A stretch of 64,000 nucleotides of DNA from Candidatus Enterousia sp. (GTDB lineage: Bacteria > Pseudomonadota > Alphaproteobacteria > Rs-D84), in contig JAZLBQ010000026.1 in the NCBI GenBank assembly GCA_045613785.1, positions 12,697 to 76,696 on the forward strand, read 5' to 3'. The notes below the pieces were generated by a model. That model saw only the letters and a program-made list of their open reading frames with translations. It was not told the origin of the DNA and searched no databases. Positions 17,516 through 50,057 of this stretch are shown one piece after another; within the stretch, counting starts at the first letter, position 1, and each line of letters opens with the position of its first letter. Both the position numbers and the translations under genes were made by a program.

Positions 17516-17543
17516 TTAACTCTCTCCCTTAGTTTTATTATTG

Positions 17544-18254
17544 TTATTCCACGATTCCGTTGTTGATTGTAATTCTACGATCTGCCCGCTGTGCCAGATT
17601 CATATCATGTGTCACGAACAGCATTGCCATTTTATTCTTGCGTGCTAAATCCAGCAATAAATCGAACACCGCCCCTGCATTATGCGGGTCAAGACTGCCA
17701 GTTGGTTCATCTGCCAACAAAATATCAGGATTGTTTGCCAAGGCTCGTGCCACTGCCGTTCGTTGTTGTTCACCACCACTCATTTCACCAGGATGATGAG
17801 ATGCACGATGTGCAACATTTGCAGCCCGCAACAATTTCATTGCCCTGGCCCTGGCGACATTTTCTTCGACGCCATTTGCCAGCATTGGCAACATGACATT
17901 TTCCAATGCGGTAAAGTCAGCCAACAAATTATGTCGCTGATAAACAAAGCCTATTTTTTTACGACGAACCTGAGTCCTTCTTTCTTCGTCCATTCTTTGA
18001 ACAGGCATACCGTTTATCAAGATACTGCCACCACTTGGCTTGTCCAACAGTCCTACACATTGCAACAAAGTAGATTTTCCTGACCCAGACGAACCAACCA
18101 TTGCAACAATTTCACCACGATGCAAATCAAATCCCCCACCACGCAATATATGCAAAGGCTGTCCGCCTTCGACAAACGTGCGTTTAATATCCCGCACTGA
18201 CATAACCACGTCACCAGACTGTACCTTTGACAAAGACTCTAAAATATTCGCCAT
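17544..18254 (-). CDS. lolD: lipoprotein-releasing ABC transporter ATP-binding protein LolD
   Basis: 236 aa; Walker A GSSGSGKST, signature LSGGEQQR, and high similarity to E. coli LolD along its full length. Confidence 0.85.
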   Translation of the reverse strand: MANILESLSKVQSGDVVMSVRDIKRTFVEGGQPLHILRGGGFDLHRGEIVAMVGSSGSGKSTLLQCVGLLDKPSGGSILINGMPVQRMDEERRTQVRRKKIGFVYQRHNLLADFTALENVMLPMLANGVEENVARARAMKLLRAANVAHRASHHPGEMSGGEQQRTAVARALANNPDILLADEPTGSLDPHNAGAVFDLLLDLARKNKMAMLFVTHDMNLAQRADRRITINNGIVE

Positions 18255-18929
18255 TTATTCCCGCCCATTATTCTTATTTAGTTCTATCTGTGCCACAGCC
18301 TGCTTTAATATATCACGAAATTGTGGCGCAACCACATGCCCAACTCCATACCAAATGCCCTTCAGCGCTTCTTGGGTATCAACATCCATCTGGTCTTTGG
18401 TTCTATTCAGATAATATTCAATATCTTCGGGCGAAAAACCAAAGGCAACCCCATGAATAAAATCCAACTCCAAATTATTTAACAACTTATCTGCATATTG
18501 CGGAAAGTTCTTTTTTGCATCCTGCACTTTTGCTGGCTTTATCGAAACATTTGCCAATTCTGGATTCAGACGCTTTATTTCATCTACATAACGCTTCATC
18601 TGAACACGCCAATTGTCCTTATTTTGCAAAATATAATTTTCTAAATCTGCAATTTCCTGTTCTGAATATCGCGTATCACCAACCACTATTTTACGCACCG
18701 CTTTTTGATAATCTTGCAGTCTGTACATATACCCATATCGCATCATCAAACCAAATGGACTTAATCCATCTGGCAACTTATATTGATAATAAATCTTGAA
18801 TGGTAATTTTACCCCATGCTCCACAAACATCTTTTCTGCATCCAACGCACTAGACTGATACTCGCCCCACTCTGCATTAAATTGTTCCAGCATAATTTTG
18901 TTAAAAAGCAATTCTGTTTTCTTACTCAT
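18255..18929 (-). CDS. hypothetical cytoplasmic protein inserted between lolC and lolD
   Basis: 224 aa with no recognisable motif. Its start overlaps the lolC stop by 8 nt, and its stop TAA directly abuts the lolD ATG (TAAATG). Confidence 0.5.
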   Translation of the reverse strand: MSKKTELLFNKIMLEQFNAEWGEYQSSALDAEKMFVEHGVKLPFKIYYQYKLPDGLSPFGLMMRYGYMYRLQDYQKAVRKIVVGDTRYSEQEIADLENYILQNKDNWRVQMKRYVDEIKRLNPELANVSIKPAKVQDAKKNFPQYADKLLNNLELDFIHGVAFGFSPEDIEYYLNRTKDQMDVDTQEALKGIWYGVGHVVAPQFRDILKQAVAQIELNKNNGRE

Positions 18930-20175
18930 TTCTCAGCACCTCAACCGGGTCTGTATTTGCCGCTTTCCACGCTGGATACAGCGTCGCCAAAAATGCCAAC
19001 AATATTGCAATCAGCGCAATACCCAAAACATCTGTCCACACCAACTTTGATGGCAACTCTGACAGATAATATAATTCCGCCGGGAACAAATCCCGTCCTG
19101 TCAACCATTGGAAAAACTGTCGTATTGGTTCAATATAAATTGCGACCACCACCCCCAGTATTGTTCCAAATAACGCCCCAATAATTCCAATTGATGTTCC
19201 TGACAAAACAAAGATTTTCATCATAGACCGACGACTGACCCCAAAAGTTCGCAACACTGCAATATCTTTGTTTTTATCTTTGACCAGCATTACCAACGAC
19301 GAAACTATATTAAAAGCCGCCACAATAACAATCAGCAACAAGATTAAAAACATAACATTTGATTCGACCTGCAACGCCCCAACAAACCCACGATTTAAAT
19401 CACGCCAATCACGGACAACAAATCCTTCGGGCAATAACCTTGCCAAACTTTCCACAACGACTGTTGTATCTTCTGGGTCTTCCAAGAAAACATCAATATG
19501 TGTTACACTATTTCCGATATTTAGATACTTTTGTGCAGTTTCCAGCGGCATAAAGATATACCCAGAATCATATTCATACATACCCATAAAGAAAGAACTC
19601 ATCACCGGATAAGACATAATTCGTGGCATTGACCCAAAAGGTGTTGGTGTTGCTGCATTTGCCGATACCAATGAAATTTTATCCCCCATCGTGACACGCA
19701 ACGCACGTGTAAGCGACGCCCCTGCAACCAATTCACCATCAGATATAGCAGACAAATCCTTACCATAAATACGTGTTCCATTTTGTGTTTTTTTTGCCAA
19801 ATCAGACATACGAATACCACGAATCATTGCCCCTGTGTTATTACCATTGGCTGTGGCCATAACCTGCCCTTCTGCGATTGGCACGATACCGGTTGCCCGT
19901 TGTTCAACAACCTTGTTTTGTTTAATTTTGTCGATTAGGAAATCAAAGTCAGCAATTGCACCATCTTGATGATAGACAACGACATGTCCGTTCATTCCCA
20001 CGATACGCCCTAACAGAGTCTCGTGAAAACCACCCATTACAGACATCACAACAATCAAGGTCGCAACACCTAACATGATACCAATCAGCGACACCCAGGA
20101 AATCACAGAACCGAATCCCCGTTTTTTTGCCCCCAAATATCTAAAAGCGATTTTTCTTTCCAGTTTTGAAAACAT
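18922..20175 (-). CDS. lolC: lipoprotein-releasing system permease LolC/E family
   Basis: 417 aa; N-terminal TM, a large periplasmic domain, and 3 C-terminal TMs (FtsX/MacB-like topology); LolC-like N-terminus FRYLGAKKRGF. Confidence 0.8.
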   Translation of the reverse strand: MFSKLERKIAFRYLGAKKRGFGSVISWVSLIGIMLGVATLIVVMSVMGGFHETLLGRIVGMNGHVVVYHQDGAIADFDFLIDKIKQNKVVEQRATGIVPIAEGQVMATANGNNTGAMIRGIRMSDLAKKTQNGTRIYGKDLSAISDGELVAGASLTRALRVTMGDKISLVSANAATPTPFGSMPRIMSYPVMSSFFMGMYEYDSGYIFMPLETAQKYLNIGNSVTHIDVFLEDPEDTTVVVESLARLLPEGFVVRDWRDLNRGFVGALQVESNVMFLILLLIVIVAAFNIVSSLVMLVKDKNKDIAVLRTFGVSRRSMMKIFVLSGTSIGIIGALFGTILGVVVAIYIEPIRQFFQWLTGRDLFPAELYYLSELPSKLVWTDVLGIALIAILLAFLATLYPAWKAANTDPVEVLRNE

Positions 20176-20187
20176 CAGTTTTTATCC

Positions 20188-21516
20188 TTATTCACTCAAA
20201 AAATCACGCAACGCATCACCAATCAGTTCATTTGCCTGTCCAATTTGAGCAGGTCCATCAACAATTGAAATCACACGTGGCGACATAAAGACAACCAGTT
20301 CTGCAAAAGGCGACACCAATGTTTCAGGTGTTGTCACAAACGAATGCGTTGGAATACCGATAATCACATAGTTATCCCCAACACTTGTTGGCAAATTGAA
20401 TGAGCTCAATTCTCCCTGACTTGTTCGCAACACGATTTTTGCATCAATCTTATCACGACCACCAAAGTCCCCATATTTTCCGGTTGCCCCAACAATTAAA
20501 TCTGTTTCCAATCGTTCTTCACGACCACATTGTCCGATATCAAATCTTGATTGCCAACCATTTGGTATAGCAAACGTTCCTTGAGAAATTAAAACAACAT
20601 TTGCCTGTTGTGCTAAAAATTCCTGCAAAGTTTTTGTATTGATTTCAGGACCTACGACCAACGCACGTCCAACGACACCTGGCACAGACATTTTAATATT
20701 CTTTTCACCGAACGCTGGCAATAAATTCATCCAAACAATTGGGTTATCTGTTCGTGGATAGACACGATAAACATCGATATCCCACGCCAACATATATTTC
20801 TTTCCAGAAACATCTGCGATAATCCTTGCGACCTCACGTTCAGTCTGATAATTTCCTTCAAAGACCAACGTTTTATCTTGCCAATCAACAATTAGATTAC
20901 GCATATCTGCACCATGCATTGCGTCCAGCAACGCCATAATAATCGTTTCATCTTGTGGCATTTTAATCAGCCACTTTCCACGATGCATCAAATGCAATTC
21001 GCCATTTTGTGCATCATAGGAATAATAAGCACGTCCCATTTTTGCCATCAATTCAACAGCATCAGACAACGCCCCCGATGAAATAGTCCCTGAAATTTTT
21101 TCAAATAACTGTTCATCTTCTACAACTGCAATATCTGTTCCGTCCAGCAATTTATCCAACGCCCGTTTAACAGTCAAATCCTTGAATTCATAGTCTGAAA
21201 CTTTCAACTCTGGCAGTTCATCACCCACCCCCAGACGTATCATTTCAATTTTTTCAGCAGGCACAACCGAAACCACACTTTGATTATTCCAATCAACTTC
21301 ACACCGCTTTGGCAGCTCTACCGAAAAGCGTCGTGCAGTATCTGTTGTCAAGGCTGCTTTTTTTGGAAAGATTGGCACAGAATTTTCATCGATTACCAAC
21401 TCGTCAATAACAGTGATATTATCAATAATCTGCACAGGCTTGTCTTCTTGAACACAGGCCGCCATTGCGAAACAACAAATCACCCAAGATAATTTTTTTA
21501 ATGCTCTCATACCCAC
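20188..21516 (-). CDS. outer-membrane lipoprotein with secretin-like features (tentative)
   Basis: 442 aa; signal peptide plus Cys (FAMAAC), a secretin_N-like block (VKRALDKLLDGTDIAVV...LSDAVELMAKMGRAYYSYD) and a C-terminal IIGIPTHSF...ELVVFMSPRVI resembling the secretin VPxLGxIPxLGxLF...ELLVFITPRII motif. Confidence 0.35.
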   Translation of the reverse strand: MGMRALKKLSWVICCFAMAACVQEDKPVQIIDNITVIDELVIDENSVPIFPKKAALTTDTARRFSVELPKRCEVDWNNQSVVSVVPAEKIEMIRLGVGDELPELKVSDYEFKDLTVKRALDKLLDGTDIAVVEDEQLFEKISGTISSGALSDAVELMAKMGRAYYSYDAQNGELHLMHRGKWLIKMPQDETIIMALLDAMHGADMRNLIVDWQDKTLVFEGNYQTEREVARIIADVSGKKYMLAWDIDVYRVYPRTDNPIVWMNLLPAFGEKNIKMSVPGVVGRALVVGPEINTKTLQEFLAQQANVVLISQGTFAIPNGWQSRFDIGQCGREERLETDLIVGATGKYGDFGGRDKIDAKIVLRTSQGELSSFNLPTSVGDNYVIIGIPTHSFVTTPETLVSPFAELVVFMSPRVISIVDGPAQIGQANELIGDALRDFLSE

Positions 21517-24118: not shown

Positions 24119-25048
24119 ATGAGATATATCACTTTATTTTTTATAATATTTCCATTTGTCGCATCGGCGAATGCACTGCCGCTGGATGATGCATTGCGTG
24201 CCACATACACCGCATGCGTTGGTATTGATGATGAATTGACTGACCTGAAAACAATGGCCGGGATAAATACTGCAATTACATCTGTTGGAACGGCGGCCGG
24301 TGTTGGTGCAACGGTCACAGGGCTTGTAAAAGCCAACAAAGATAAACAAATTGAAGTAAAACTGGAAAAACTGCGCGAAATTGAACAAAAAAATCCAGAC
24401 CTACAATCCACAAATGCTGAATGGGATAATTTTGAATCCGGCCTGACAACAGAACTGGCCAATGCAAAAATAGAGGTTGAAAAATATCAGGCTGAAATTG
24501 AAAAACTGAATAAGCAATCAAAAAAATTGGGTAATTGGCGGACAGGCCTGATGGCGGGCGCAACCGCAACCAATGTGGCTGGTGCAATTATTGCCGGCAC
24601 AAATAAAGTAGATGGCGACCTGAAAACGCAAATAGACAATTGTATCGGCAGTGTCAAAACCCTGCAAAATTCCATTATGCAGGCACGAATAAATGGCGAA
24701 GATGTGTCCGAGGCAGAAACAATCGCATCCGCATGCGTCGAATATGAATATGTCGATGTGTCCAAAATAAACAATCGTGCCAAGGGCGCAATGATTTCAT
24801 CCTCCGTTGGTGCTGCGACTGGATTGGCCGGAACGATTACATCCGCCACAGCCAATTCAAACAAAATACGCAATGCCCAGGGTGATGCAGCACAACAAAA
24901 AGAAAAAAATCTGAATACTGCCTCAAATGTGTTGGCGGGCGCAACAACTGTGGCTTCGGCAACAGCAACTGTATTCAACGCGACACAGATATCCGCGATA
25001 AAAAAAGTAGCAAGTGTTGCCGAAAAATGTACGGGGGTATTGAAATGA
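24119..25048 (+). CDS. secreted Ala/Gly/Thr-rich coiled-coil protein
   Basis: 309 aa; signal peptide MRYITLFFIIFPFVASANA. The stop overlaps the next ATG (ATGA). Confidence 0.5.
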   Translation: MRYITLFFIIFPFVASANALPLDDALRATYTACVGIDDELTDLKTMAGINTAITSVGTAAGVGATVTGLVKANKDKQIEVKLEKLREIEQKNPDLQSTNAEWDNFESGLTTELANAKIEVEKYQAEIEKLNKQSKKLGNWRTGLMAGATATNVAGAIIAGTNKVDGDLKTQIDNCIGSVKTLQNSIMQARINGEDVSEAETIASACVEYEYVDVSKINNRAKGAMISSSVGAATGLAGTITSATANSNKIRNAQGDAAQQKEKNLNTASNVLAGATTVASATATVFNATQISAIKKVASVAEKCTGVLK

Positions 25049-27678
25049 AGAAAACCCTGATTGCATTTTTGTGTACATTTATTGCGTTACCTGCGGTGGC
25101 TGATAATTATATCAAATTCAAGGCATCCGCAATCGAAGATACGATAAATACAATGGTGCCAGAATCACACCGCGCGTCCGCAGCAGACGAATATCAAAAA
25201 CAGATGGATTCAACCACCGGTAAAATATCTGTTATGGGTATTTACAAGGTTTGTGCAGCCGCCGGGTTCAATATAAATAACACAAATGGATATAACGGTT
25301 GTCGCCTGTTTATAAATACAATCGCAGAAAAATCTGGTTTTGGCTCTGGCAGCGCAACCCAACAAAATTGTGCAAACAAGTTCAATGGCATTTGGGCTTT
25401 ATCCCCCGATGGCACAGAACAATGTGTTGGCAGAGACGGCCATAAATTGGTATATCACGCATCATGTGATGGTGCGGGTGACGGTTGTATACGGGATTTT
25501 TCATCCCTGCAAACCCAGGAACCAAATGCACGCGAATTTATACAGGCATACGGACAACAAAAGAATCTGCAATTTACATGTTGGTATACATATGACAATC
25601 GTCGTGGCATAACCAGCCCACTGGGGCAAGATTACATAAAATGTAGTGCCGGTGGTAAATCATACGAATTTGAATTTGACGATTTGATTCAGGACCCAAG
25701 TAAAACCGCGGTTGAATCTGAAAATACAGCCCTGTGTGAAATGTTTGGTGGTAAAATTGTAAAAAATCCAGACAGCAGTATTGAAAAACAATGGCAATCG
25801 TGCGAAGTATCAAGGGAAATTTGCAATGGCCCACTACATAATTTGGCAGTCAAAATCGGACACAATGTAATGTACCAGGGATACTGCCGCCTGTCACGCA
25901 CAGTAACAGAAACATCGGTCGTTGGTCTGAAAACATTACCAGGTGTGGACAGTCGTATATTCTATAACACAGGCGCCCAAATGCGTGCCGGCATGGCCAA
26001 GGAACAAACCGAAGAATATCTGCGCACAAAATTCCCAAATGAAACATATGTAAACTGTGACCCAAATCCAAAAATATTGAACGAAGGCTTTGGAATTGAC
26101 CGGGACTATGTCATGACCTGTACCGTTGGCAGTAAACAGGTTGATTTCATATTCCATGACCTGACCGAGGGGGCGGATTATAAAGCAGAATCTGGCGAAG
26201 CAAAAATGGCATGTGCAATTGTGTCCGAGCGTCTTAACGGACAAAACTGCCATGGTTTGGACCAAGCTGCATGTACAGACCTGGGCAACAAATTAAAGCA
26301 AATGGGGCGTCGTGGCACAGACTATAAACCCGAACAAGGTGGCTGTATATTACTAGACACACAAAACGAAGAACTGGTTAATCTGGGATTGGAAATTGCG
26401 GGCGGTGTTGCATTAACAGTCCTCACAGGTGGCTATGGCGCAATTGCTGTCGTTGCCTCAATTGCAACAGATATTGGCTTTGAACAACTGAATCAATTGC
26501 TACGCAAAATTCCCTATAACGACTATCTAGAGTTTATGGAACACGCCAATAAATGTAGCGACACCGACACCAGCATTGAAAATCAGTATTGCGCTGGGAA
26601 TGTTCTGAATAAATATTTTGCATTAATTGCGGGCAGCATGGATAATCTGGCGCCTGAAATCCAGCAACGTGCAAGTGATAAATTACAATCCATGATGAGA
26701 ATTCTTTCAGATCCCGAAATCCTAACAACGGTTGATTTGTCTCACATTTCGGTTCAAAAGCGATCACGAAACCTGGCTTCGTTTGGTGCACTGGGATTAT
26801 TATGGCTGGCAAACCCTGATAAATGGGCAACCAAGGCCGATGATTTAATCCGCCAAGCCACAAAAATGGGAAAAACTATCAACAAAATTGATAATGTCGT
26901 TGACGCTGCGCGTATGTTTGGACGCACCAATCTTGATGATATTGGTGTTTATTCCAAGGGGTGGAGTGCTTTTCCATTGGAAGGATACAATAAATTCAAA
27001 ATAAAGGAAATAAGTTATCCAGGTGAAGCCGATGATGTACGTAGGGCCTTAGAATCTTCTGTGCCTAAAAAACCAAACCAAGCATTCTTAGGTGTAAAAG
27101 ACGACTATATTTACATAACATATGCAACAGATTTAGATCAGATGCGTCCTATATTCAACAGATATGTATCTGGTTCTAGTGTCGATAATGTTGCCGAAGC
27201 AACAATAAAAATTCCAGCTGGAAAACAGGGGGCGGCAGATATTATCCACAGAAGCGGAAACTCGGATGGTCTTACCGGATGGGAACCTGTCGAGACAATC
27301 GGTGATATAAAGACACCTACATATAACCAAGCTTACACATCGCCATCAAATACAAGCACAAGCAAAAGGTCTATTGTTGACGATTTGTTGGAGGAAAGAC
27401 GCAAAGCACAACAGGTATCTGTTCAAACACCGCAAACAACAGCAACAACCCAAAAATCGTTCTTAGATATTGCACGTGAAGCCGATGAGGCGGGTCAAGC
27501 AAGAATAGACGCATTTCGTGCAAAATACGACATGAGTACACAAGGCAGACTAAAATATACAAAAGAGCAATGGAAAGAAATTTTTGATAATGAAATCGGG
27601 TGGTCTGACCTAGAGGATACTTTCAGGGATGATTTTTTCCGTGATTATCAGTCTCTACTTGAACTAAATCGATACTAA
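25045..27678 (+). CDS. large secreted cysteine-containing hypothetical protein
   Basis: 877 aa from MKKTLIAFLCTFIALPAVA. Has an internal repeat (YEFEFDDL... / VDFIFHDL...) and is translationally coupled to the upstream gene. Confidence 0.5.
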   Translation: MKKTLIAFLCTFIALPAVADNYIKFKASAIEDTINTMVPESHRASAADEYQKQMDSTTGKISVMGIYKVCAAAGFNINNTNGYNGCRLFINTIAEKSGFGSGSATQQNCANKFNGIWALSPDGTEQCVGRDGHKLVYHASCDGAGDGCIRDFSSLQTQEPNAREFIQAYGQQKNLQFTCWYTYDNRRGITSPLGQDYIKCSAGGKSYEFEFDDLIQDPSKTAVESENTALCEMFGGKIVKNPDSSIEKQWQSCEVSREICNGPLHNLAVKIGHNVMYQGYCRLSRTVTETSVVGLKTLPGVDSRIFYNTGAQMRAGMAKEQTEEYLRTKFPNETYVNCDPNPKILNEGFGIDRDYVMTCTVGSKQVDFIFHDLTEGADYKAESGEAKMACAIVSERLNGQNCHGLDQAACTDLGNKLKQMGRRGTDYKPEQGGCILLDTQNEELVNLGLEIAGGVALTVLTGGYGAIAVVASIATDIGFEQLNQLLRKIPYNDYLEFMEHANKCSDTDTSIENQYCAGNVLNKYFALIAGSMDNLAPEIQQRASDKLQSMMRILSDPEILTTVDLSHISVQKRSRNLASFGALGLLWLANPDKWATKADDLIRQATKMGKTINKIDNVVDAARMFGRTNLDDIGVYSKGWSAFPLEGYNKFKIKEISYPGEADDVRRALESSVPKKPNQAFLGVKDDYIYITYATDLDQMRPIFNRYVSGSSVDNVAEATIKIPAGKQGAADIIHRSGNSDGLTGWEPVETIGDIKTPTYNQAYTSPSNTSTSKRSIVDDLLEERRKAQQVSVQTPQTTATTQKSFLDIAREADEAGQARIDAFRAKYDMSTQGRLKYTKEQWKEIFDNEIGWSDLEDTFRDDFFRDYQSLLELNRY

Positions 27679-38697: not shown

Positions 38698-38774
<77 letters not shown>

Positions 38775-39064
38775 GAATTCCGCCCCATTTTCACCCTTTT
38801 GCTACCTATTTGCTACCAAGAACAACCATTAAAGATAAACAAAATCATACATTATTAAGAATTGACATCTGATTTGAACATACTAGAATTCAAGCATAAT
38901 CAAAAGAATTCTTATTTTTCTAACAATACCTAACCCAACTTCAAATACACACAGGGGACGGGGGGGGGAGCAAGGTATAAGCCATAAAAAACACAAATCG
39001 GTCTTGAACTAAATAAAATAGAACAAGAATTAAACCAAACATCGTATCTTATTACTATACAATA

Positions 39065-39739
39065 TCAAACATTCTGGCTTATAAACTTCTCATTTACTAT
39101 TTCTTTTGTTTTATGCATCAAATACAATCTCATCAAATGTGAAAATGTTTCCGTTGTCGGTTTTATAATATCCCAAACCAACAATTCTGTATCAAACACA
39201 CCTGTTTTCATCCATTTTTCTTCAAGTTTTTCATAAACATAAATCATACTTTGGCCAACATATTTATAATCAAAACTATAAACCTTTCTTTCTTGTGGGT
39301 TAAGACTAGGAATAGCACTTGCCGCTATTGCCATTCCCATAAATGCAAACTTTGGTTCAAATGTTTGATAATCCCAACACGCTGAAACACCTATTATATT
39401 TCCATACTTATCCCACAACAGCCATGTATAGGTATCCAATGAGTTATTATAAGTCGGAACCAAATGCTTAAAATACCAATCCGTCCTATCCAGACAAATA
39501 TCCTTTAGCAAAGGATAATTTCCAACAAGTTTTTCAACATTGTTAAAATCACCAGCATATTCAAATAATAATGGTCCTGTTTCTCTGTTATAAGAAAACA
39601 TCATAATGGTGCTTATCTCAGAATTAATACCGTTGTCTTTTAAGATTTTATAATTTATCTCAAACCAATCTTTTGAATATTGTGTATAAACTGGCAATTT
39701 TACTTTTTTTTGAAATAACTTTTTAATTATATTTGTCAT
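39065..39739 (-). CDS. hypothetical protein (island cargo)
   Basis: 224 aa, very AT-rich codon usage; no motif recognised. Confidence 0.45.
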   Translation of the reverse strand: MTNIIKKLFQKKVKLPVYTQYSKDWFEINYKILKDNGINSEISTIMMFSYNRETGPLLFEYAGDFNNVEKLVGNYPLLKDICLDRTDWYFKHLVPTYNNSLDTYTWLLWDKYGNIIGVSACWDYQTFEPKFAFMGMAIAASAIPSLNPQERKVYSFDYKYVGQSMIYVYEKLEEKWMKTGVFDTELLVWDIIKPTTETFSHLMRLYLMHKTKEIVNEKFISQNV

Positions 39740-39747
39740 ATTTCCCC

Positions 39748-40410
39748 CTATTCAGACACCACGTTTTCTCTCTTTCTTTCCAATTCTAAAATATCTCTAA
39801 ACTGGTAGGTATATGTAAAAATTTTATCCATATACATATTATCACCAGCCCAATACTTATCAGAAATATACCCCAAATATATTTTATCTTTATAAAACTT
39901 TATTTCTGTCAAAAATAACGTTTTTCTACAAGGCACTAACTCTGTATTAAATACAGGATATGAATTATTAAAAGCATTCATATAACCATACCCCACGATA
40001 GTTTTTGACCCCGTATAAACAGAACCAGCATAATTAGCTTTTTCACAAACATCCGGCACAGATATACTATATACATTAATTTCCCTTCTTACCTTTACAG
40101 GATTTTTGCATTTATAATTATTTATTTCTTTATCATAGTCTCGCTTAGTCATTTTTATACCCGACCTTGCGTAACCAACATTTGTATTAAACGGGTCATT
40201 GGTATAAAATGGATTTTCATCCAATTCTTTAAACCCAGTACTAAATTCTGCACCTTCAAAAACAATGCAAAAATCATCCGATTTTAAATACTGTTCAATT
40301 TTGTGCATATTTTCATAATCATAACCACTACCTTCAAAACACCTATCTACACAAGGTTCCATTACACATCCAAACAACAAAAAAACAGACAATAAAAACG
40401 CCCTATTCAT
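39748..40410 (-). CDS. hypothetical lipoprotein (island cargo)
   Basis: Start at MNRAFLLSVFLLFGCV, a lipobox-like segment; Cys- and Tyr-rich. Confidence 0.45.
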   Translation of the reverse strand: MNRAFLLSVFLLFGCVMEPCVDRCFEGSGYDYENMHKIEQYLKSDDFCIVFEGAEFSTGFKELDENPFYTNDPFNTNVGYARSGIKMTKRDYDKEINNYKCKNPVKVRREINVYSISVPDVCEKANYAGSVYTGSKTIVGYGYMNAFNNSYPVFNTELVPCRKTLFLTEIKFYKDKIYLGYISDKYWAGDNMYMDKIFTYTYQFRDILELERKRENVVSE

Positions 40411-40878
40411 ACCACACCCCTTATAAAAAAATACCGTCAACAAGGGAATATTGACGGTCGGGTGGCTTCAAAACATCAAGTAAATGCCCCGTTGCTTTCA
40501 GAATAATCCTATTATATAACAACGGACACCCGACCACAGGTCAGGCAAAACGGTGCGAACACACCATTTAGAATATGGATAACGATGCAATTCGCACCGT
40601 ACTTGATGGGTTTTGAAGGCCCCGAACCCGCTAGTCCCCTATCGGATTCAATGCTTATGATAACAATAAATACCTATAAATGCAAAACAAAAACCGGCCC
40701 ACCACAACTATTAAATAACCAACAACAAAAGCCCGTATTTTAATACTAACAGACCTTTTAGATTATATTTAAACACAAACAACTTAATTAGCTTGTATTA
40801 AAACATTGACTATTTGTTTTGCTTGTATTAAAATACAATCTATATAAATAGGTTATATTAAAATAAAAGGTAATAAAA

Positions 40879-41976
40879 TTGGCTTCTTTTACTTTAAAAA
40901 AATTTCCAGACATTTTATCCGATATACCATCAACTACAGATACATCTAGTGCCTTATTAAAATTAGCTAGATATGATGGCATGATAGAATTCATACCGTA
41001 TCCAGAAGTATTAACAAGCATATTATTTTACCAAGAATCGGTTATGTCATCTAGACTGGAAGGCACGATAGCAACAATTACTGACATATTAAATTATAAA
41101 GTTGGAAAAAATCTATCAGAAAGATTAGAAAAAGACGCTACAGAAATAGAAAATTATAAAGACGCTCTAGGATACTGTATTAAAGAAGCAAAAGATAATA
41201 ATTTTGAAATCACAAACAGACTAATAAAAAACATACAAGCTATTATACTAAACAACTCTAGAGGTGGAGACAAACTTAAAGGAAAATATAAAGAAAAACA
41301 GAATTATATAGGTAATAAATACGATGGAGAGATAACATATACTCCAGTATCTTACTTACACACAGAAGAATATATGAATAATCTAATAAATTTTATAAAT
41401 TCAAATACATCTGAAAACCCGCTTGTTAAAACCGCAATTATTCATGCATATTTTGAACTAATACACCCTTTTGAAGATGGAAACGGAAGAGTTGGACGTA
41501 TTTTAATACCAATACTATTAAAAAAATACAATATACTATCCACGCCATATTTTTATATAAGTTATTACTTTTCTGTAAATAGAAACAAATACATATCTGC
41601 CTTGGAAAAAATTTCAAAAGAAAACGATTGGCAGACCTGGATTGACTTTTTTATCAAAGCAATTGAACACCAGACAACGGTATTAACAAACATATTAAGA
41701 CAATTAAAAGAAATTAGAAAAAAAACAGAAGAAGAAATATCAAGCTTAAAAACACAATTTTGTATCCCTATACTTAATTTTCTATTTAAACAAATTAAAT
41801 TTAAAACTACTGATTTTATAGAAAAAACAGGAATTAATGCTAACACATCAAGAGCATTATTGAAAACACTAGAAGAGAAAAACATACTTGAAATAGAAGA
41901 AAAAGGAACCGGACAAAGTCCAACAATATACAGGTTTAAAGAGTTATATCAAATTGTTAAGGATATATCAGCATAA
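40879..41976 (+). CDS. fic: Fic-family AMPylator, class II (intramolecular inhibitory helix)
   Basis: Canonical active site HPFEDGNGRVGR, plus an N-terminal SSRLEG matching the (S/T)xxxE(G/N) inhibitory motif. Confidence 0.85.
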   Translation: MASFTLKKFPDILSDIPSTTDTSSALLKLARYDGMIEFIPYPEVLTSILFYQESVMSSRLEGTIATITDILNYKVGKNLSERLEKDATEIENYKDALGYCIKEAKDNNFEITNRLIKNIQAIILNNSRGGDKLKGKYKEKQNYIGNKYDGEITYTPVSYLHTEEYMNNLINFINSNTSENPLVKTAIIHAYFELIHPFEDGNGRVGRILIPILLKKYNILSTPYFYISYYFSVNRNKYISALEKISKENDWQTWIDFFIKAIEHQTTVLTNILRQLKEIRKKTEEEISSLKTQFCIPILNFLFKQIKFKTTDFIEKTGINANTSRALLKTLEEKNILEIEEKGTGQSPTIYRFKELYQIVKDISA

Positions 41977-42136
41977 ATGTTTATCCACAAACCCCAGCAT
42001 TTTATCTGTAGCGGTTTGCATTGAATCACGAATTGGGTCAACCGTCAGGCGGCTATAAACCTGTGTTTCGCTGGTGGATTTGTGGCCAAGTGATTTACCA
42101 ATAACCGGCAAACTGGCACCTAATATCGCCTGTCAT
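41968..42136 (-). pseudogene. tyrosine recombinase/integrase remnant (C-terminal ~55 codons, frameshifted)
   Basis: Minus-strand frames give MTGDIRCQFAGYW* and then, after a frameshift, SLGHKSTSETQVYSRL...DKH. This matches the HxLRHTFAT...LGHSSIxTTxxYxH integrase C-terminal catalytic-Tyr region. Confidence 0.6.
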
Positions 42137-42540
42137 GAATCCAAATACACCAACCCCTGTGGAGGGGATTTCAACCCAATTTCTGCCAACGTTTTTGGCA
42201 CATCAAACCGAACAACATTCCCCAATTGATATGCATACGCCACATCACAACCTGCAAAATAAGACTTAAAAAATTCATACGACACGCCGGCATTATTCTT
42301 TACAATTTCCCACATTTCATCAGGCCCCATTGAAATAATCCGAACAACCCTTGCCGCACCTACAACCCTTTTCATCGGCCGTGTTTCATAGATAAAAATT
42401 TCATCAACCGCCTTTCTTGGACAAACTTTTCTAAATTCAAACTTTTTATCCCCAGATAAAATTTTTTCAACAAATTCAGGCTTTATCGCCAACAAAATCG
42501 CCATTTGTTCCTCTTTCAAGATAAAAACAGAATTATTCAA
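42133..42540 (-). CDS. ASCH-domain protein
   Basis: 135 aa; similar to ASCH/PUA-like small proteins (ILLAIKPEFVEKILSGDKKFEFR). Confidence 0.5.
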   Translation of the reverse strand: MNNSVFILKEEQMAILLAIKPEFVEKILSGDKKFEFRKVCPRKAVDEIFIYETRPMKRVVGAARVVRIISMGPDEMWEIVKNNAGVSYEFFKSYFAGCDVAYAYQLGNVVRFDVPKTLAEIGLKSPPQGLVYLDS

Positions 42541-42599: not shown

Positions 42600-43583
42600 T
42601 CACATTTTATAGATTCTAACAAAACTTGTTTCACTAGTTCCCGTTGAACCACTTCCACCATCACCACCATTTACAACAAGTGTTGTTGATGTTCCAGCAC
42701 CATTGATTGCACCACCACCGCCGCCACCACCATAAGATATTGCCGTCTGACCACCGCATGAAAAACTAACACTTTCACCGCCCTTGCCACCTATGACCGA
42801 TGCATATTCTGTGCATTTATATGTTTTACAACTGGTGGCATTACCGCCATCGCCACCACTTTCTGGTGTTCCGTCCGTTCCCGGGTCAATACTCACAGTA
42901 AAATCTGGATAAGATGACGCATTATTATATTGCCACGACGTCCCCCCCTTATCACTTGGCGAACCACCGCCACCGCCACCAACACCATATGTATCTGTTT
43001 TATATATTCTAAATCCCCGATATCCATTTGCACCGCTAAGTCCAGACTTTCCACCAAAACCATTGCCTATTGCCACAGCAGTTGCACTATACAATCTGTT
43101 CACGGCACTATTATTATATGAAATTGTGCATGTATTTCCGGGACCACCTTCGGCCCGCCAAACACGTTCACCAACAACCAGCAAAGAATCGACCCCTGAT
43201 GCACCACCACCAAAAGTCCCGTGTTTTGTTCCCGTTTTCTTCACACTTCCTGGATTACCATCGCCACCACGAAACACATGAACTTCTGTTGGTTCAAACA
43301 CTGAAAACAAAGCAGACACAACCGATGTTTCAGACAAATCAACAAAGTCCACACATTCATCGTTTTTCAGTCCGACACCACCACGCAATTCCGCCCGATA
43401 ACATCCTGGTTCCAAGGTAATAGAATTACAAACATTGATATCATTTTCTTCATAGACTAATTCTTCACTACCGGACATAACGCAAGCCCCCTGTGGCACT
43501 TCGTCTGCCGCCATATAGATATTACCTCCAGGTCCGGTTATATATAATGCATTTGCTAAGATCAAGGCAGGTATAAACATCAA
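42600..43583 (-). CDS. glycine-rich secreted protein, paralogue A
   Basis: 327 aa; N-terminal hydrophobic signal, poly-Gly runs (GGGGGGS, GGGGGGAING). Shares the blocks LVYEEN.IN.CNS, YRAELRGG, VFRGGDGN, GGGASGVDSLLVV, ISYGGGGGGG and ETSFV.IYK with 43592..44596. Confidence 0.55.
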   Translation of the reverse strand: MMFIPALILANALYITGPGGNIYMAADEVPQGACVMSGSEELVYEENDINVCNSITLEPGCYRAELRGGVGLKNDECVDFVDLSETSVVSALFSVFEPTEVHVFRGGDGNPGSVKKTGTKHGTFGGGASGVDSLLVVGERVWRAEGGPGNTCTISYNNSAVNRLYSATAVAIGNGFGGKSGLSGANGYRGFRIYKTDTYGVGGGGGGSPSDKGGTSWQYNNASSYPDFTVSIDPGTDGTPESGGDGGNATSCKTYKCTEYASVIGGKGGESVSFSCGGQTAISYGGGGGGGAINGAGTSTTLVVNGGDGGSGSTGTSETSFVRIYKM

Positions 43584-43591
43584 GTATTACT

Positions 43592-44596
43592 TTAACCTAT
43601 TTTATAAATTTTTACAAAGCTTGTTTTACTTGTTCCTTTTGAACCACTGGCACCATCACCACCATTGACACAGTCCGTGTCACACCACTGCCCACTTGAT
43701 TCACATCCCGACTGATAAAAAAAACACATGCCACCACCACCACCGCCACCATACGAAATTGCCGTCGTCCCAGCACAAGAAAACACAACATTTTCTCCAC
43801 CCTTTCCACCATAACCATAATTAGAGGTCAAAGAATTTTCTTTTTTATTTTTTACAGTTCCACCATCACCACCGGCACTTGCAGTTGCGTTACTACCACC
43901 TGCAATATAAGAATACGAAGAACTTGCCTCACCTCCTATTCCGCCACCAATATTATTTGAACCACCACCGCCAGCACCACAATAACCACGTGCCTGGTAT
44001 TTAATTGTTGACCCATTATTTATGGTTTTATCTGCCGTAATACCACCGCCACCGCCATAACAAACGTCAAACAAAGCATACCCCCCACCATTCAAACCAC
44101 TCACTGTTCCTGTGATACACTTTGAACCAACCGCCCCTGTTGCCCTGATTACACGTCCTTCAACAACCAACAACGAATCCACCCCTGACGCACCACCACC
44201 AGAAATCTGATGTGAATTCGCCCTTTTGCTATCATTACCATCGCCACCACGAAAAACATCAATCACTGTTTCTTGGTTTATTTTGAAAATACTTGAAACA
44301 ATTTCACTATCAAAACGTTGAGTTCCAATTCCGGACTGACAAGACGCAGGTTTTCCCCCTGTTCCACCACGCAATTCTGCCCGATAAATTCCTGCTTCCA
44401 ACCGCACAGAATTACAGGTATTTATCGAGTTTTCTTCATACACCAGTGTTTCAGATCCATCATAAATTCCACCTTCTACTGGGATTAAAGCTACGTGAAA
44501 AACCTCGCCTGCGGCGTTTTTTATATGCATAGCAGGCGACGTCAACTGTTGCTGTTGTGCAACAATTTGAATATTATCAACATTTATTACAGGCAT
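43592..44596 (-). CDS. glycine-rich protein, paralogue B (no obvious signal peptide)
   Basis: 334 aa; the same conserved blocks as paralogue A; tandem duplicate 8 nt upstream. Confidence 0.55.
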   Translation of the reverse strand: MPVINVDNIQIVAQQQQLTSPAMHIKNAAGEVFHVALIPVEGGIYDGSETLVYEENSINTCNSVRLEAGIYRAELRGGTGGKPASCQSGIGTQRFDSEIVSSIFKINQETVIDVFRGGDGNDSKRANSHQISGGGASGVDSLLVVEGRVIRATGAVGSKCITGTVSGLNGGGYALFDVCYGGGGGITADKTINNGSTIKYQARGYCGAGGGGSNNIGGGIGGEASSSYSYIAGGSNATASAGGDGGTVKNKKENSLTSNYGYGGKGGENVVFSCAGTTAISYGGGGGGGMCFFYQSGCESSGQWCDTDCVNGGDGASGSKGTSKTSFVKIYKIG

Positions 44597-44734
44597 AGTC
44601 CCTCAAAATACCTACTCTAATCATAGAAAAAAAACATCACATTGAGCAAGTCATAAAGAAAGAAACAATAAAGTAATTGCGACATATTCATAAAAAGTCT
44701 TAAAATAGCATTAAACAAAGACAGGCAAACAGAT

Positions 44735-46715: not shown

Positions 46716-47327
46716 TTAAAAACACTTATCCAGTTCTGCACCAGACTCGTTTTGATCAATTTGTTTATTTCTAATTTCTTGTGCGGCTTTGATTTTTTGT
46801 TTCAACAAAATTATTTCGGGGTGTTTTTGAAATTCCATATTAAACAAATCAATAACCGCATCTACATCATCTTTTGATTTAACAAAGACGGGCATAACAG
46901 AATCTGCCGCCACAAACATAGACTGTTGTAAATCTGGCTTAAAATCATCAATCACCGATAAATAAGATTCAATATGTTTATCTTCGTGTTTTAGCACGGC
47001 ATTATAACTGCACGATTTTGGGACGTGTCGCATATCAATTTGAACTATAAATTCAGAATATCCAACCAAAGCCTCAACTGTTTTTAATCCGACACAAAAA
47101 CCATCATCAACAGGATTGACATCTGCGACAAAATCATAATTATCAACCAAAGTTGCGACGACATTGCCATGCCAAAAATCCATTGGTGTTTTTGGTTGAA
47201 CAACGACTTTTTCCCAATCTGGCAAATTCACGAAAACGGCTGGATTTTTTTTAAATTTCAAACAATCATTGGCCACAGCCTGCCCTGACACCAAGATTGC
47301 AAAAATCCACCCCAAACACTTTTGCAT
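46716..47327 (-). CDS. secreted DUF922-like putative Zn-dependent protease (HExxH)
   Basis: 203 aa; signal peptide MQKCLGWIFAILVSGQAVA; YNAVLKHEDKHIESY resembles the DUF922 HExxH core. Lies immediately downstream of virB4. Confidence 0.4.
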   Translation of the reverse strand: MQKCLGWIFAILVSGQAVANDCLKFKKNPAVFVNLPDWEKVVVQPKTPMDFWHGNVVATLVDNYDFVADVNPVDDGFCVGLKTVEALVGYSEFIVQIDMRHVPKSCSYNAVLKHEDKHIESYLSVIDDFKPDLQQSMFVAADSVMPVFVKSKDDVDAVIDLFNMEFQKHPEIILLKQKIKAAQEIRNKQIDQNESGAELDKCF

Positions 47328-47334
47328 AATAAAG

Positions 47335-49764
47335 TTACTCTGCCGCCCCCTGCTTTTTCAGGTATTCATTTACAAAATTATTACCATACATTTTGTATAA
47401 TTCTTCTGCCAACAGCACTGACGAGCGTCCAGATTCAAACAATCTCAACAGATTTCCCAAACCGCCCAATTCTGTATTTAATATAACAGATTCACCATTT
47501 ACAGGTCTTGACAACAACACAGCTCTTTTCAGATTTGGATATGCCTTACCCTGGATAAAAGCCATTTCCAGCGGATTCAAATTCCAGTGTGCATAGTCAT
47601 TTGCATCAGCGGCAGGATTTCTGAAAAACATCACCGTCTGAGCCTGTCCACGCACCACATCACCAATTCCCATTTTATCCAAAACATTCGCACGTTGGAA
47701 CGCCACCATATATGCCTGACGGTTTTTACGTCCTTCTTGTAAACCGGTAATAAAGTTATCACGGAACATTTTGTTTTCCAGCATAGGTGCAGTTTCGTCA
47801 ATCATAATCAGCGACGGATTTCCCCCTGACACAGTAATATTATTGATTCTGTGCAAGATATAAGAAATAACTGCTGGCGACAAGACCTCGTCCTGTAAGA
47901 TATCAGTAAAATCGAACGTAGTCAGTCTTGAATGTAAATCCAATGTATCTGATGCTTCATTAAACATATCACCATATTGCAGTGGATCGACCCATTTTTT
48001 TAGTGCGGGCCGCATATTACCAGCCGAAGAAAAACAACTTTCCCACAGATTTTTCAACATTCTGTCATTTTCGTTCAGATAATCAAAATTCACGGAAACA
48101 GCCCGTGCTATTTCATCTGCTGACACTGCATCATTTTGTCCAGAAATAATGGCAAACCACCGCCGCAAGAACGCACGATTTGCGGCACTATCAGGCATTT
48201 TCAATGGATTTAAGTGTGTAATAAAACTTTGTTCTGTTGCATTTTGAGCTTTTTCCTTTCCCTGCATAGTGATATATTTTCCACCAGCGGCCAGTGTGAA
48301 TATTTCTGCCCCTTTATTTCTATCAAAGAAAAACGCTTTTAACTTTGGATGTCTTAAACTTTGTGCAATCAGGAAAGAAAACAGCGTAGTTTTTCCCCCA
48401 CCTGTCGGACCTATTGTCAAAGTATGTCCCACAGCAGCAGGTTTATCAGACACATGGAATTGGAATTGATAAGGTGTTCCCTGTGCAGTTGGGAAAACCA
48501 CCAATGGTCCTGGACCCCAGTCTGAATTTTCAACACCACGTGGCTGGGTTGACATAGGAATTGAAATTGCTGCTGCCCTTGACAACAACTTGAAACTGCG
48601 TGGGAAAACATCAAATCCTGGGATTTGTGCAAACCACGAAACTTTTGACGCAAACGTTTCCACGACAGGCGAAATTCCAAATGTTGCTGAAATCTTTTTA
48701 AATTCATCAACATACTTTTGCAAATCACTTGGCGTTGCCCCGAACAGAACAAACAGCGGATAATAATTTACCAGACTTTGATTTCCTGAAACATTTTCGT
48801 CCATCACGCTTTGTGCCTGAGAAATTTGTGTTTCTGTTGAATCTTTGTTTTCATCTGCTGTTGAACGCCGCTGACGGATAGTCGCTTCTACATCTGCAGC
48901 CCCCATAATATGAAATCCGTTCATACAAATCATTTCTGTCTGAATAGTAGATATTGTATCAAAGAATTCTTCTTCCAGATAATCAGGTGAAATCTTGAAA
49001 GACAAACAAGCAGCAAACGATTGATTTGGTCCACTGATATATCTTATTAAACCATCATTCAAGAATTCTACATCATCAACGGTTGTTAAACTAGCAATAT
49101 TGTTATCGGCCCTCATTGGTCTTGGTTTTGAAATAGGCGATAATATACGCCCCAAAAAGCAGGCCATATTATCAGGTGCATTATTTTTCAACAATTTTGG
49201 TCGATACGCTGCCAATATAGATTCAATATAATTACCATATTGATTTAATTTTGCCCGTGCATCACTGCCACTAACTGACAAAACGACATAGTAATTATTC
49301 AAAAATATTTTCAAGCCTTGTCCCCGCCACTTATTATAGATACGCTGTAAGGTAGGCTGATCAAATTCATAGTTTGTATTTTCATCTGCTGCATCACGCA
49401 CCATATAGAAACGCAACACAACATTAGGGTCTCTGATTTGATTAAACAACTGTGCTCTTAAATCCAAGAATTTTTCTTTTGTAGCATTATCCTGCATACT
49501 GGTCTGAACACCATCAATATGATAAACCCTGATGATACTACCGTCAGTCAGTTCCATTGAATTATCATTATAAACAGTTTTGAACGGCAAATAGTTAGCA
49601 TATTTTGCATATCCGAACTTTGGGAACAGCCTTTTTGTTAAAAAGGGCAAATAAATCAGCAATACAATAAACACAAACGCCACAGCCAAGGCCAGAACCA
49701 CCAAAGTCATCTGAAAACCACTACCTGCGAAATAGTTAAAAAAATCATTTAAATGTGTGTTCAT
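47335..49764 (-). CDS. virB4: type IV secretion system ATPase VirB4/TrbE
   Basis: 809 aa; N-terminal TM, Walker A TIGPTGGGKTT, and the CagE/TrbE/VirB4 architecture; overlaps virB3 by 4 nt. Confidence 0.85.
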   Translation of the reverse strand: MNTHLNDFFNYFAGSGFQMTLVVLALAVAFVFIVLLIYLPFLTKRLFPKFGYAKYANYLPFKTVYNDNSMELTDGSIIRVYHIDGVQTSMQDNATKEKFLDLRAQLFNQIRDPNVVLRFYMVRDAADENTNYEFDQPTLQRIYNKWRGQGLKIFLNNYYVVLSVSGSDARAKLNQYGNYIESILAAYRPKLLKNNAPDNMACFLGRILSPISKPRPMRADNNIASLTTVDDVEFLNDGLIRYISGPNQSFAACLSFKISPDYLEEEFFDTISTIQTEMICMNGFHIMGAADVEATIRQRRSTADENKDSTETQISQAQSVMDENVSGNQSLVNYYPLFVLFGATPSDLQKYVDEFKKISATFGISPVVETFASKVSWFAQIPGFDVFPRSFKLLSRAAAISIPMSTQPRGVENSDWGPGPLVVFPTAQGTPYQFQFHVSDKPAAVGHTLTIGPTGGGKTTLFSFLIAQSLRHPKLKAFFFDRNKGAEIFTLAAGGKYITMQGKEKAQNATEQSFITHLNPLKMPDSAANRAFLRRWFAIISGQNDAVSADEIARAVSVNFDYLNENDRMLKNLWESCFSSAGNMRPALKKWVDPLQYGDMFNEASDTLDLHSRLTTFDFTDILQDEVLSPAVISYILHRINNITVSGGNPSLIMIDETAPMLENKMFRDNFITGLQEGRKNRQAYMVAFQRANVLDKMGIGDVVRGQAQTVMFFRNPAADANDYAHWNLNPLEMAFIQGKAYPNLKRAVLLSRPVNGESVILNTELGGLGNLLRLFESGRSSVLLAEELYKMYGNNFVNEYLKKQGAAE

Positions 49765-50057
49765 GCTGCTAACTTTCCTGGTATTTTCTTTTTAAACAAT
49801 TGAATTTTTGCGGACACAATCTGTCCCAACTGCGGATCACGTTTTGAAAATATAGCGATAATAGAATGAACGACAATAACAGAGATTAAAAAGAACAATG
49901 GATTTACGCTTTCTTTTCCGCCTGAAACAATCAAGACGATGACGAAAACCGCCATAAAAATAATAAATTGCACAACAAAGTTCAACACGGCCAGCGAATA
50001 AGGCACATAAAAAATATGTGCTGGATTTGCCAACGCTTTTAATACCTGCTGTTTCAT
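49761..50057 (-). CDS. virB3: type IV secretion system protein VirB3
   Basis: 98 aa with two TM helices, located immediately upstream of virB4 and translationally coupled to it. Confidence 0.7.
   Translation of the reverse strand: MKQQVLKALANPAHIFYVPYSLAVLNFVVQFIIFMAVFVIVLIVSGGKESVNPLFFLISVIVVHSIIAIFSKRDPQLGQIVSAKIQLFKKKIPGKLAA

Follow-up and report, generated by a model that had tools for sequence, protein, structure and literature searches.

Paired glycine-rich proteins of Candidatus Enterousia with a core homologous to phage tail-fibre tips

Introduction

What do two adjacent genes for glycine-rich proteins contribute to a gut bacterium with a reduced genome? Such a pair lies in a 64,000-nucleotide stretch of a Candidatus Enterousia genome (Alphaproteobacteria, Rs-D84; GenBank assembly GCA_045613785.1, contig JAZLBQ010000026.1, positions 12,697 to 76,696), here called the window, where genes A and B occupy positions 42600 to 44596 of the minus strand. 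Genomes of the Rs-D84 order, which includes Enterousia, are smaller than 1 Mb and encode a fermentative metabolism without standard transporters (PMC12306168), and the lineage has been proposed to live as an obligate symbiont or parasite that draws metabolites from other cells (PMC12306168). A preliminary description of this DNA noted the two glycine-rich proteins, did not recognise their family, and suggested a fibre, an adhesin or a bacteriocin carried on a genomic island. We find that A and B are paralogues encoded as an A-then-B cassette, that they belong to a narrow family of cellular rather than viral distribution, and that their core is homologous to the tip domain of phage tail fibres, with a predicted fold otherwise seen in the receptors ALK and LTK. 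We tentatively favour the reading that the pair acts as a binding module outside the cytoplasm.

Results

A and B are paralogues encoded as a tight pair

Gene A (43592-44596, minus strand) starts with ATG and encodes 334 residues, with an N-terminus reading MPVINVDN... and a cysteine-rich insert near its C-terminus, as judged from its open reading frame (ORF) and 206 homologues. Gene B (42600-43583, minus strand) lies downstream and encodes 327 residues when read from a TTG codon at 43583; its product has a short hydrophobic N-terminus, has no cysteine-rich insert and ends in ...SFVRIYKM. The start of B is more likely the ATG at 43580, giving 326 residues, because its homologues begin with MF or ML.

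By BLASTP with composition-adjusted statistics, the two proteins are 39% identical (E = 2e-49), a similarity far above chance or glycine bias, which makes them paralogues, as the preliminary description had proposed. A and B each contain all the sequence blocks that it had quoted, arranged alike, namely LVYEEN.IN.CNS..LE.G.YRAELRGG, VFRGGDGN, GGGASGVDSLLVV, ISYGGGGGGG and a C-terminal TSFV(K/R)IYK, and these blocks form the most conserved columns of a 45-member family alignment. Glycine accounts for 21% of the residues in A and likewise in B, distributed over about 13 short Gly motifs per protein in runs of at most seven. A and B share this high glycine content with RTX, PE-PGRS and collagen-like proteins but differ from them otherwise: no strict match to the tandem RTX nonapeptide GGxGxDxUx was found (one loose GGxGxD occurs in A), in line with the earlier observation; PGRS-type GGA/GGN arrays are absent from both proteins, neither has a Pfam match to the PE domain, and the only Gly-X-Y stretch is a 15-residue run in B.

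The stop codon of A and the TTG of B are separated by 8 nt (43584-43591, minus strand), a spacing that implies co-transcription and probably coupled translation. Upstream, an intergenic region (44597-44734) separates A from a divergent outer-membrane protein (OMP) beta-barrel gene. It presumably holds the promoter and 5' leader of the cassette, since in genome SIG46, which carries several copies of the pair, the dispersed repeat unit already includes the 50-170 nt upstream of A. A consensus scan of this region gave no confident sigma-70 site, and the scan for promoters and terminators performed no better than on shuffled sequence.

The pair defines a narrow, cellular family

Scans of A and B against Pfam, NCBIfam and PHROGs returned nothing below E = 0.1, the single weak PHROG match of B being to phrog_19854 (function unknown) at E = 0.13, and sequence searches of the PDB with A, with the 45-sequence profile and with the family member P0028 gave no meaningful match. 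Among 5.8 billion proteins we found 206 relatives, nearly all of 320-345 residues and all unnamed or labelled 'hypothetical', with organism labels only of uncultured Alphaproteobacteria. The family is narrow, because an exhaustive profile search of 1.84 billion cluster representatives yielded just 71 at E < 1e-3. Loci in genomes of GTDB species belong to Candidatus Enterousia and related gut metagenome-assembled genomes (MAGs; sheep colon, Hadza human gut and similar sources), so that in the searches made the family is known only from Enterousia-like gut Alphaproteobacteria. Two scans of metagenome contigs added at least one further locus, the listed pattern matches being dominated by unrelated glycine-rich DNA.

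The 45-sequence alignment resolves two subfamilies. A-type proteins (29 sequences) are longer at the N-terminus by about 17 residues (MPxI(H/N)V...) and bear an insert with four cysteines close to the C-terminus, which is missing from B-type proteins with their short hydrophobic N-terminus. All complete loci examined (about 25) have the same order, an A-type gene and then, after a gap of 5-15 nt, a B-type gene. Several cassettes may share a genome: SIG46 has at least six A/B loci, and in L026 and L029, from Hadza and other human gut assemblies, two different cassettes on one chromosome flank a common Dus-RodZ-UvrA block, each embedded among housekeeping genes.

No gene is linked to the pair across genomes, as judged by clustering the ORFs within 6 kb of 21 loci, which recovered only local synteny among Enterousia species and a small tail-fibre-like ORF in four loci. 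The neighbours across loci are genes such as those for RNase E/G, PriA, RecO, ClpX, MscS, UvrA and FtsJ and the rml genes. A DsbA-like gene stands near a cassette in both L001 and L029, beside recO, probably through coincidental synteny.

A and B are predicted to share the ALK/LTK fold

AlphaFold2 models of the two proteins, built with family alignments, reached a predicted local distance difference test score (pLDDT) of 85.5 and a predicted template modelling score (pTM) of 0.79 for A, and 89.9 and 0.83, respectively, for B, with poor definition confined to the first 20-45 residues. In the models, beta strands are supplied by both ends of the chain, including the C-terminal ...SFVKIYK strand, and in A some 12 Gly motifs lie between them. 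The Gly motifs of both proteins fall in regions to which DSSP assigns no secondary structure, with pLDDT above 90. The predicted core, a TNF-like plus glycine-rich (TG-type) unit, spans residues 49-334 of A (43595-44452, minus strand; pLDDT mostly above 85) and, from the model and Foldseek, residues 41-327 of B (42603-43463, minus strand).

By Foldseek against the PDB, the top 21 matches were exclusively the extracellular glycine-rich domain (GRD)/TG regions of ALK and LTK, for A and for B alike. For A, E values start from 4e-5 with probability 1.0 over about 335 aligned columns, and for B E is 1e-3, the alignments of the two spanning about 310-360 columns. The next-best fold appeared only at E of about 0.3-0.5, the first non-ALK match of A being the fibre of cyanophage Pam3 (E = 0.27). 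ALK/LTK (7NX1, 7NX0, 7LS0, 7LRZ, 7LIR) is thus the only solved fold matched by both models, at nearly full length.

The resemblance extends to the beta-sandwich built from N- and C-terminal strands, the many Gly motifs between them and the conserved cysteines. Unlike the receptors, A and B are stand-alone bacterial proteins of about 330 residues without EGF-like, transmembrane or kinase parts, they end with the last strand of the domain, they share only 12-15% identity with ALK/LTK, and they form a heterotypic gene pair; there is no reason to expect that they bind ALKAL cytokines. The TG fold of ALK contains a lattice of 14 polyglycine-II helices, and we infer a polyglycine-II geometry for the Gly motifs of the A and B models.

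Profile matches point in the same direction. PF12810 (ALK_LTK_GRD) is matched at E < 1 by 9 of the 45 family members, two of which, P0028 and P0086, exceed its gathering score (25.5-25.6 versus 24.5 bits, over profile positions 2-198 of 243), and PF21722 (Gly_rich_2) is matched weakly by four of the 45; A and B themselves give no match. From these sequence comparisons, the family that had gone unrecognised sits on the fringe of the PF12810/PF21722 superfamily, with the fold of ALK/LTK and of the Pam3 fibre protein gp24, and is in part connected to families already described. A TNF-like beta-sandwich with an inserted glycine-rich subdomain is therefore a well-supported prediction for both proteins, since the 3Di-based Foldseek statistics, the exclusivity of the matches and the independent weak sequence evidence agree on it; tight superposition is not its basis.

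The core is homologous to a phage tail-fibre tip domain

The profile search of the 1.84 billion representatives also reached three proteins, P0183, P0178 and P0186, at E values of 1e-6 to 3e-5 (P0183 at 1e-6). P0183 is a true tail-fibre protein, its residues 46-176 matching phrog_454 (E = 3.5e-46) as well as numerous further tail-fibre PHROGs. Residues 55-158 of A align with its C-terminal domain, which ends in ...SSGYLRIYRMW, to be compared with ...TSFVKIYKIG in A. When the family profile was aligned with these three proteins by hhalign, the probability was 97.6% and E was 4e-12, with non-glycine strand residues conserved. By profile comparison, then, the A/B core is homologous to a phage tail-fibre tip domain.

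Among the predicted viral structures of BFVD there were 30 structural matches at E < 1e-3 (E from 1e-5 to 1e-3), comprising phage 'glycine-rich domain-containing' proteins, a mycobacteriophage minor tail protein, cyanophage virion structural proteins and giant-virus collagen-like proteins. The distant relatives P0147 and P0151 match phrog_2155, another such glycine-rich group besides PF21722. The phage and giant-virus examples are domains embedded in larger virion proteins. The Enterousia family forms a narrow clade apart from these, marked by the A/B pairing and by an N-terminal motif and a cysteine pattern of its own.

The closest characterised parallel comes from myocyanophage Pam3, in which gp24's TNF-like domain and its glycine-rich domain form the receptor-binding tip (PMC9608196). 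Its glycine stem is conserved, its Gly motifs build a conserved four-layer lattice, a hypervariable distal tip has been proposed to bind the host receptor, and a similarity to the GRD of Caenorhabditis elegans ALK was noted by its authors (PMC9608196). A and B share with gp24 (7YFW) the two-part tip module, conserved Gly motifs and variable segments. Unlike gp24, they have no alpha-helical shaft or baseplate-docking domain, adjoin no gp25-like chaperone gene and are encoded in cellular chromosomes rather than phages. At the N-termini of A and B, where a shaft or baseplate-attachment domain was looked for, there is only a segment of 40-48 residues with a low-confidence beta-hairpin and no fibre repeats. 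The adhesin gp38 of phage S16 and the T-even phages (6F45) likewise has a scaffold of Gly motifs with hypervariable segments that set specificity (PMC12227593, PMC9608196); in gp38, however, a polyglycine-II sandwich sits on a beta-helix middle domain rather than a TNF-like sandwich, and the protein caps a separate fibre protein, gp37. Its structure is absent from the top 50 Foldseek PDB matches of A and B.

A viral origin of the family proper was considered and rejected, there being no match in phage genomes or viral contigs. Relatives of A were missing from 50,697 INPHARED phage genomes by tblastn, and a combined pattern and tblastn scan of 2.9 million IMG/VR viral contigs found none. In the databases covered, the family proper is cellular in its distribution.

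Small proteins of 110-155 residues with tail- or collar-fibre motifs and Sec signal peptides adjoin the A/B pair in four genomes (L005 10077-10547, L010 10740-11075, L020 2688-3101 and L021 7627-7989). They carry the motifs NPHxVTxxQ[IV]GLGNVxN and LPVG..TVAAGNDxRF, and three of the four match PHROG tail families at E values of 1e-9 to 1e-11; none occurs in the window. Their presence suggests that other pieces of tail fibres may also have been domesticated as exported proteins in the Enterousia lineage.

N-termini and cysteines bear on localisation

The N-terminal module of A (residues 1-48; 44453-44596, minus strand) carries the motif MPxI(H/N)VxNxxI...Q.TSPxxHI....G..YH, conserved in the 29 A-type sequences. 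AlphaFold2 predicts here a low-confidence beta-hairpin (strands 22-26 and 32-36, pLDDT 34-55), possibly a docking or oligomerisation segment. No signal peptide was found in A. The preliminary description ascribed a signal-like N-terminus to one of the proteins, and the hydrophobic start of B, MMFIPALILANALYI, does look signal-like. It does not appear to be a classical Sec signal peptide, because it has neither a charged n-region nor an AXA-type cleavage site and because part of it aligns with the LHI....G..YH beta-hairpin motif of A.

In three distant relatives, P0136, P0148 and P0150, this N-terminal motif is immediately preceded by a classic Sec signal peptide; at least some family members would therefore be exported. 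The contigs that encode the signal-peptide-bearing relatives are too short for informative context. P0136 itself (L024 1236-3570, on a 4.3-kb contig) lies about 500 nt from a GH108 lysozyme-type gene with a weak Phage_Mu_F match, a hint that outliers of the family may in some cases have prophage-like surroundings.

The cysteines number 10 in A and 8 in B; both counts are even, and nearly all of these residues are invariant within each subfamily, as would be expected for disulfides formed in an oxidising compartment. Four of the invariant cysteines of A lie in the A-type-specific insert (residues 291-309; 43670-43726, minus strand), which has the pattern C..C..WC..DC with a variable stretch between.

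Copies vary as mosaics under purifying selection

To describe how copies of the pair differ, we aligned four of the SIG46 loci. The dispersed repeat unit runs from 50-170 nt upstream of A to the stop codon of B. The paralogues are mosaics, in which blocks of 0.9-0.99 identity alternate with short patches of 0.35-0.7. In the A subfamily, variable runs occur at residues 161-168, 173-178, 188-191, 196-205, 228-231 and 292-297, all between conserved Gly motifs. The most variable segment of A, residues 161-205 (43982-44116, minus strand), corresponds to loops between consecutive Gly motifs; it has the lowest column conservation in the subfamily, falls in low-identity patches among the paralogues of one genome, and has a local dN/dS of 0.76-0.82 versus 0.42 overall. 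In B the most variable segment comprises residues 151-199 (42987-43133, minus strand), where paralogue identity drops to 0.35-0.60 and pN and pS are both high.

By the Nei-Gojobori method, overall dN/dS is 0.42 for A and 0.34 for B, rising to 0.7-0.97 in patches, and synonymous divergence between blocks ranges from 0 to 0.6. These overall ratios, patches that stay below 1 and the block-wise pS indicate, at the level of sequence, purifying selection on a functional pair together with gene conversion and locally relaxed or diversifying evolution.

A diversity-generating retroelement (DGR) was considered as the source of the variable patches and rejected, since the variable repeat found in L001 lies in another gene and no template repeat matches A or B. 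The L001 element looks complete (17471-20134, minus strand), with an RVT_1 reverse transcriptase at 17471-18457, a 131-nt template repeat at 19080-19210 and a variable repeat at 19461-19591, in the 3' end of a gene for a 227-residue cysteine-rich protein. Template adenines account for 17 of the 18 mismatches. The element lies 7.5 kb from an A/B pair and does not target it.

The pair lies in the syntenic backbone, outside a small insertion

The window is about 91% identical in DNA to its closest relative, the Enterousia MAG contig L004. Relative to L004 it has an extra segment of about 3.4 kb (38776-42175; GC 0.28-0.33) directly beside a tRNA-Met gene (38698-38774); L004 is without this segment and about 90% identical on both sides of it. 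Within the insertion, probably an integrated element of small size, lie a Fic/DOC gene (40879-41976, plus strand) and two ORFs without a Pfam or PHROG match (39065-39739 and 39748-40443, minus strand). Near its right edge, window positions 41983-42143 are about 97% identical to positions 10244-10360 and 14391-14547 of L007, another Enterousia genome; these L007 copies lie about 4 kb apart, as if flanking a comparable mobile segment, and may be an attachment or terminal repeat.

Carriage of the pair on an island, as had been supposed, was rejected: the pair lies outside 38776-42175 and occupies the same place in L004. Common to L004, L005 and L007, and outside the insertion, are the pair, the downstream ASCH gene, the upstream OMP beta-barrel gene, rmlC/rmlD and virB3/virB4. 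From this gene order, the pair is part of the syntenic backbone, and the rest of the window is a housekeeping backbone.

The ASCH-domain gene (42133-42540, minus strand; a weak match, E = 3.7e-4) follows B on its strand after 59 nt, an interval in which no terminator is predicted. It is also present in L004 and is unlinked to the pair in other genomes; in the species of the window it may be co-transcribed with the pair. Further upstream, a virB4-like gene (47335-49764) and a virB3-like gene (49761-50057), both on the minus strand, stand alone among housekeeping genes 2.7 kb from the pair, in a layout reminiscent of the scattered type IV secretion genes of Rickettsiales. They are followed by an ORF of 203 residues (46716-47327) without a family match, and this arrangement is syntenic in L004, L005 and L007. 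As for the cognate secretion genes that the preliminary description had proposed to look for, no type I secretion genes were found near the pair, and the proximity of virB3/virB4 is a matter of local synteny. Elsewhere in the window, ORFs without a Pfam match include 25027-27678 (plus strand, 883 residues) and 20188-21516 (minus strand, 442 residues); the former, being among the few plus-strand genes of the window, marks a local GC-skew reversal.

Discussion

How do these observations answer the question that the locus raises? The reading we favour, which in our judgement falls a little short of an even chance, is that A and B are co-expressed and probably form a hetero-oligomeric binding module that acts outside the cytoplasm on a ligand of a partner cell or of host material. 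Each protein would consist of a short N-terminal beta-hairpin and a TNF-like beta-sandwich with an inserted glycine-rich subdomain, in which the conserved Gly motifs would pack as a rigid lattice of extended strands of polyglycine-II type. Such a lattice would present the loops between motifs, the very parts that vary between copies, and A and B would cooperate as a hetero-oligomer outside the cytoplasm to bind a ligand on another cell or on host material. The role would be one of attachment or recognition in a gut alphaproteobacterium with a reduced genome and a dependence on partners, as Candidatus Enterousia of Rs-D84 appears to be. Among the functions guessed at in the preliminary description, a role as adhesin or fibre tip is thus the best supported.

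Several observations weigh against this proposal. Export, which we infer from the signal-peptide-bearing relatives and the cysteines, is its weakest point: of about 136 full-length relatives just 4 appear to depend on Sec, a classical signal peptide is absent from A and B, and no secretion system is consistently linked to the pair across the loci examined. The structural comparison gives poor global superposition, with TM-scores against ALK/LTK of 0.22-0.30 and root-mean-square deviations above 12 Å; the solved Pam3 fibre itself reaches no better than the E value given above, and A and B of the window have no Pfam match even at E ≤ 1. No patch has a dN/dS above 1, so positive selection is not demonstrated. 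With pS also differing from block to block, gene conversion and relaxed constraint, rather than selection for new specificities, may account for the mosaic.

The homology to fibre tips invites the view that the proteins are receptor-binding tips of a phage-like particle (a cryptic prophage, a gene transfer agent or a tailocin) that is built in the cytoplasm and freed by cell lysis; this would account for the lack of signal peptides in A and B. The core homologous to tail-fibre tips and the phage tail and virion proteins among the BFVD matches fit such a particle, as do the small tail-fibre-motif ORFs that adjoin the pair in four loci and the GH108 lysozyme gene near P0136. We nevertheless regard it as improbable, for the 50,697 phage genomes and 2.9 million viral contigs hold no relative, and the approximately 25 loci have housekeeping neighbours only, with no capsid, tail, baseplate or terminase gene. 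Nor do A and B have a shaft or baseplate-docking domain, and the cassette is syntenic across Enterousia species, under purifying selection and dispersed in at least six copies in one small genome; many invariant paired cysteines would also be unusual for proteins assembled in the cytoplasm. Just as improbable, in our view, is that A and B stay inside the cell as a rigid scaffold or as binders of an intracellular ligand, their cysteines holding metal rather than forming disulfides. The scarcity of classical signal peptides in A, B and most relatives and the absence of linked secretion genes would suit this, and glycine-rich polyproline-II (PPII) bundles do occur in cytoplasmic Obg and acetophenone carboxylase (PMC12227593). 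All characterised TNF-like plus glycine-rich modules are extracellular, however, in ALK/LTK as in the phage fibre tip; distant relatives carry Sec signal peptides, and mosaic loop variation in multiple copies is typical of surface-exposed molecules.

Export by another route is conceivable, with A and B as substrates of the nearby type IV secretion system, delivered to a partner or host cell or shown at the pilus. That the VirB3/VirB4 genes stand 2.7 kb from the pair, in the window as at syntenic Enterousia loci, is compatible with this, as is the missing Sec signal. We hold this to be more doubtful still, because the proximity is local synteny only, the cassettes of SIG46, the Hadza MAGs and other genomes lying far from vir genes in the sequence examined, and because the conserved C-terminus is a confident structural strand, present also in the phage relatives, and is unlike a secretion tail. 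A secreted glycine-rich bacteriocin or toxin pair, the remaining part of the earlier guess, would agree with the composition, the two small adjacent genes and the variable copies; it is very improbable all the same, given that no immunity, ABC exporter, lysis or modification gene accompanies any of the roughly 25 loci, that the proteins have no leader peptide and no PHROG, Pfam or NCBIfam toxin match, and that the fold is that of a binding module without a known killing domain.

A bolder form of the favoured reading of A and B as an extracytoplasmic binding module goes further than we would ourselves expect. A domesticated tail-fibre tip would here serve Rs-D84/Enterousia cells, as a heterodimer or heterotrimer, for attachment to the cells on which they depend, and would be exported along a non-classical path. 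Gene conversion would swap segments among its dispersed copies, varying the loops shown on the polyglycine lattice and hence the range of partners. We judge this version unlikely, though it deserves to be stated for what it would imply. If true, an obligate gut epibiont or parasite would possess, encoded by the cell itself, a counterpart to the host-range variation of phages.

Neither the fold nor its Pfam families are new, and it was known before that phages use this fold in receptor-binding tips and that it occurs in bacteria as well as phages. What is new is a stand-alone, obligatorily paired, multicopy cellular family, with an N-terminal motif and a cysteine pattern of its own, in a gut lineage of reduced genomes. 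Since the fold and its occurrence in bacteria and phages are on record, we consider the finding moderately, not highly, surprising.

To our knowledge, the TNF-like plus polyglycine-II module is among the rarest protein architectures and has so far been studied only in ALK/LTK and a few phage fibres. A compact, two-gene cellular version, repeated several times in genomes of less than 1 Mb, offers a tractable system in which to study ligand binding and assembly by this fold, and adds to the record of how phages and cells exchange receptor-binding modules. If the proteins leave the cell without a signal peptide, the way in which they do so would merit interest in its own right. For the partner-dependent Rs-D84 gut lineage, the A/B pair is a candidate for the machinery of cell-cell interaction.

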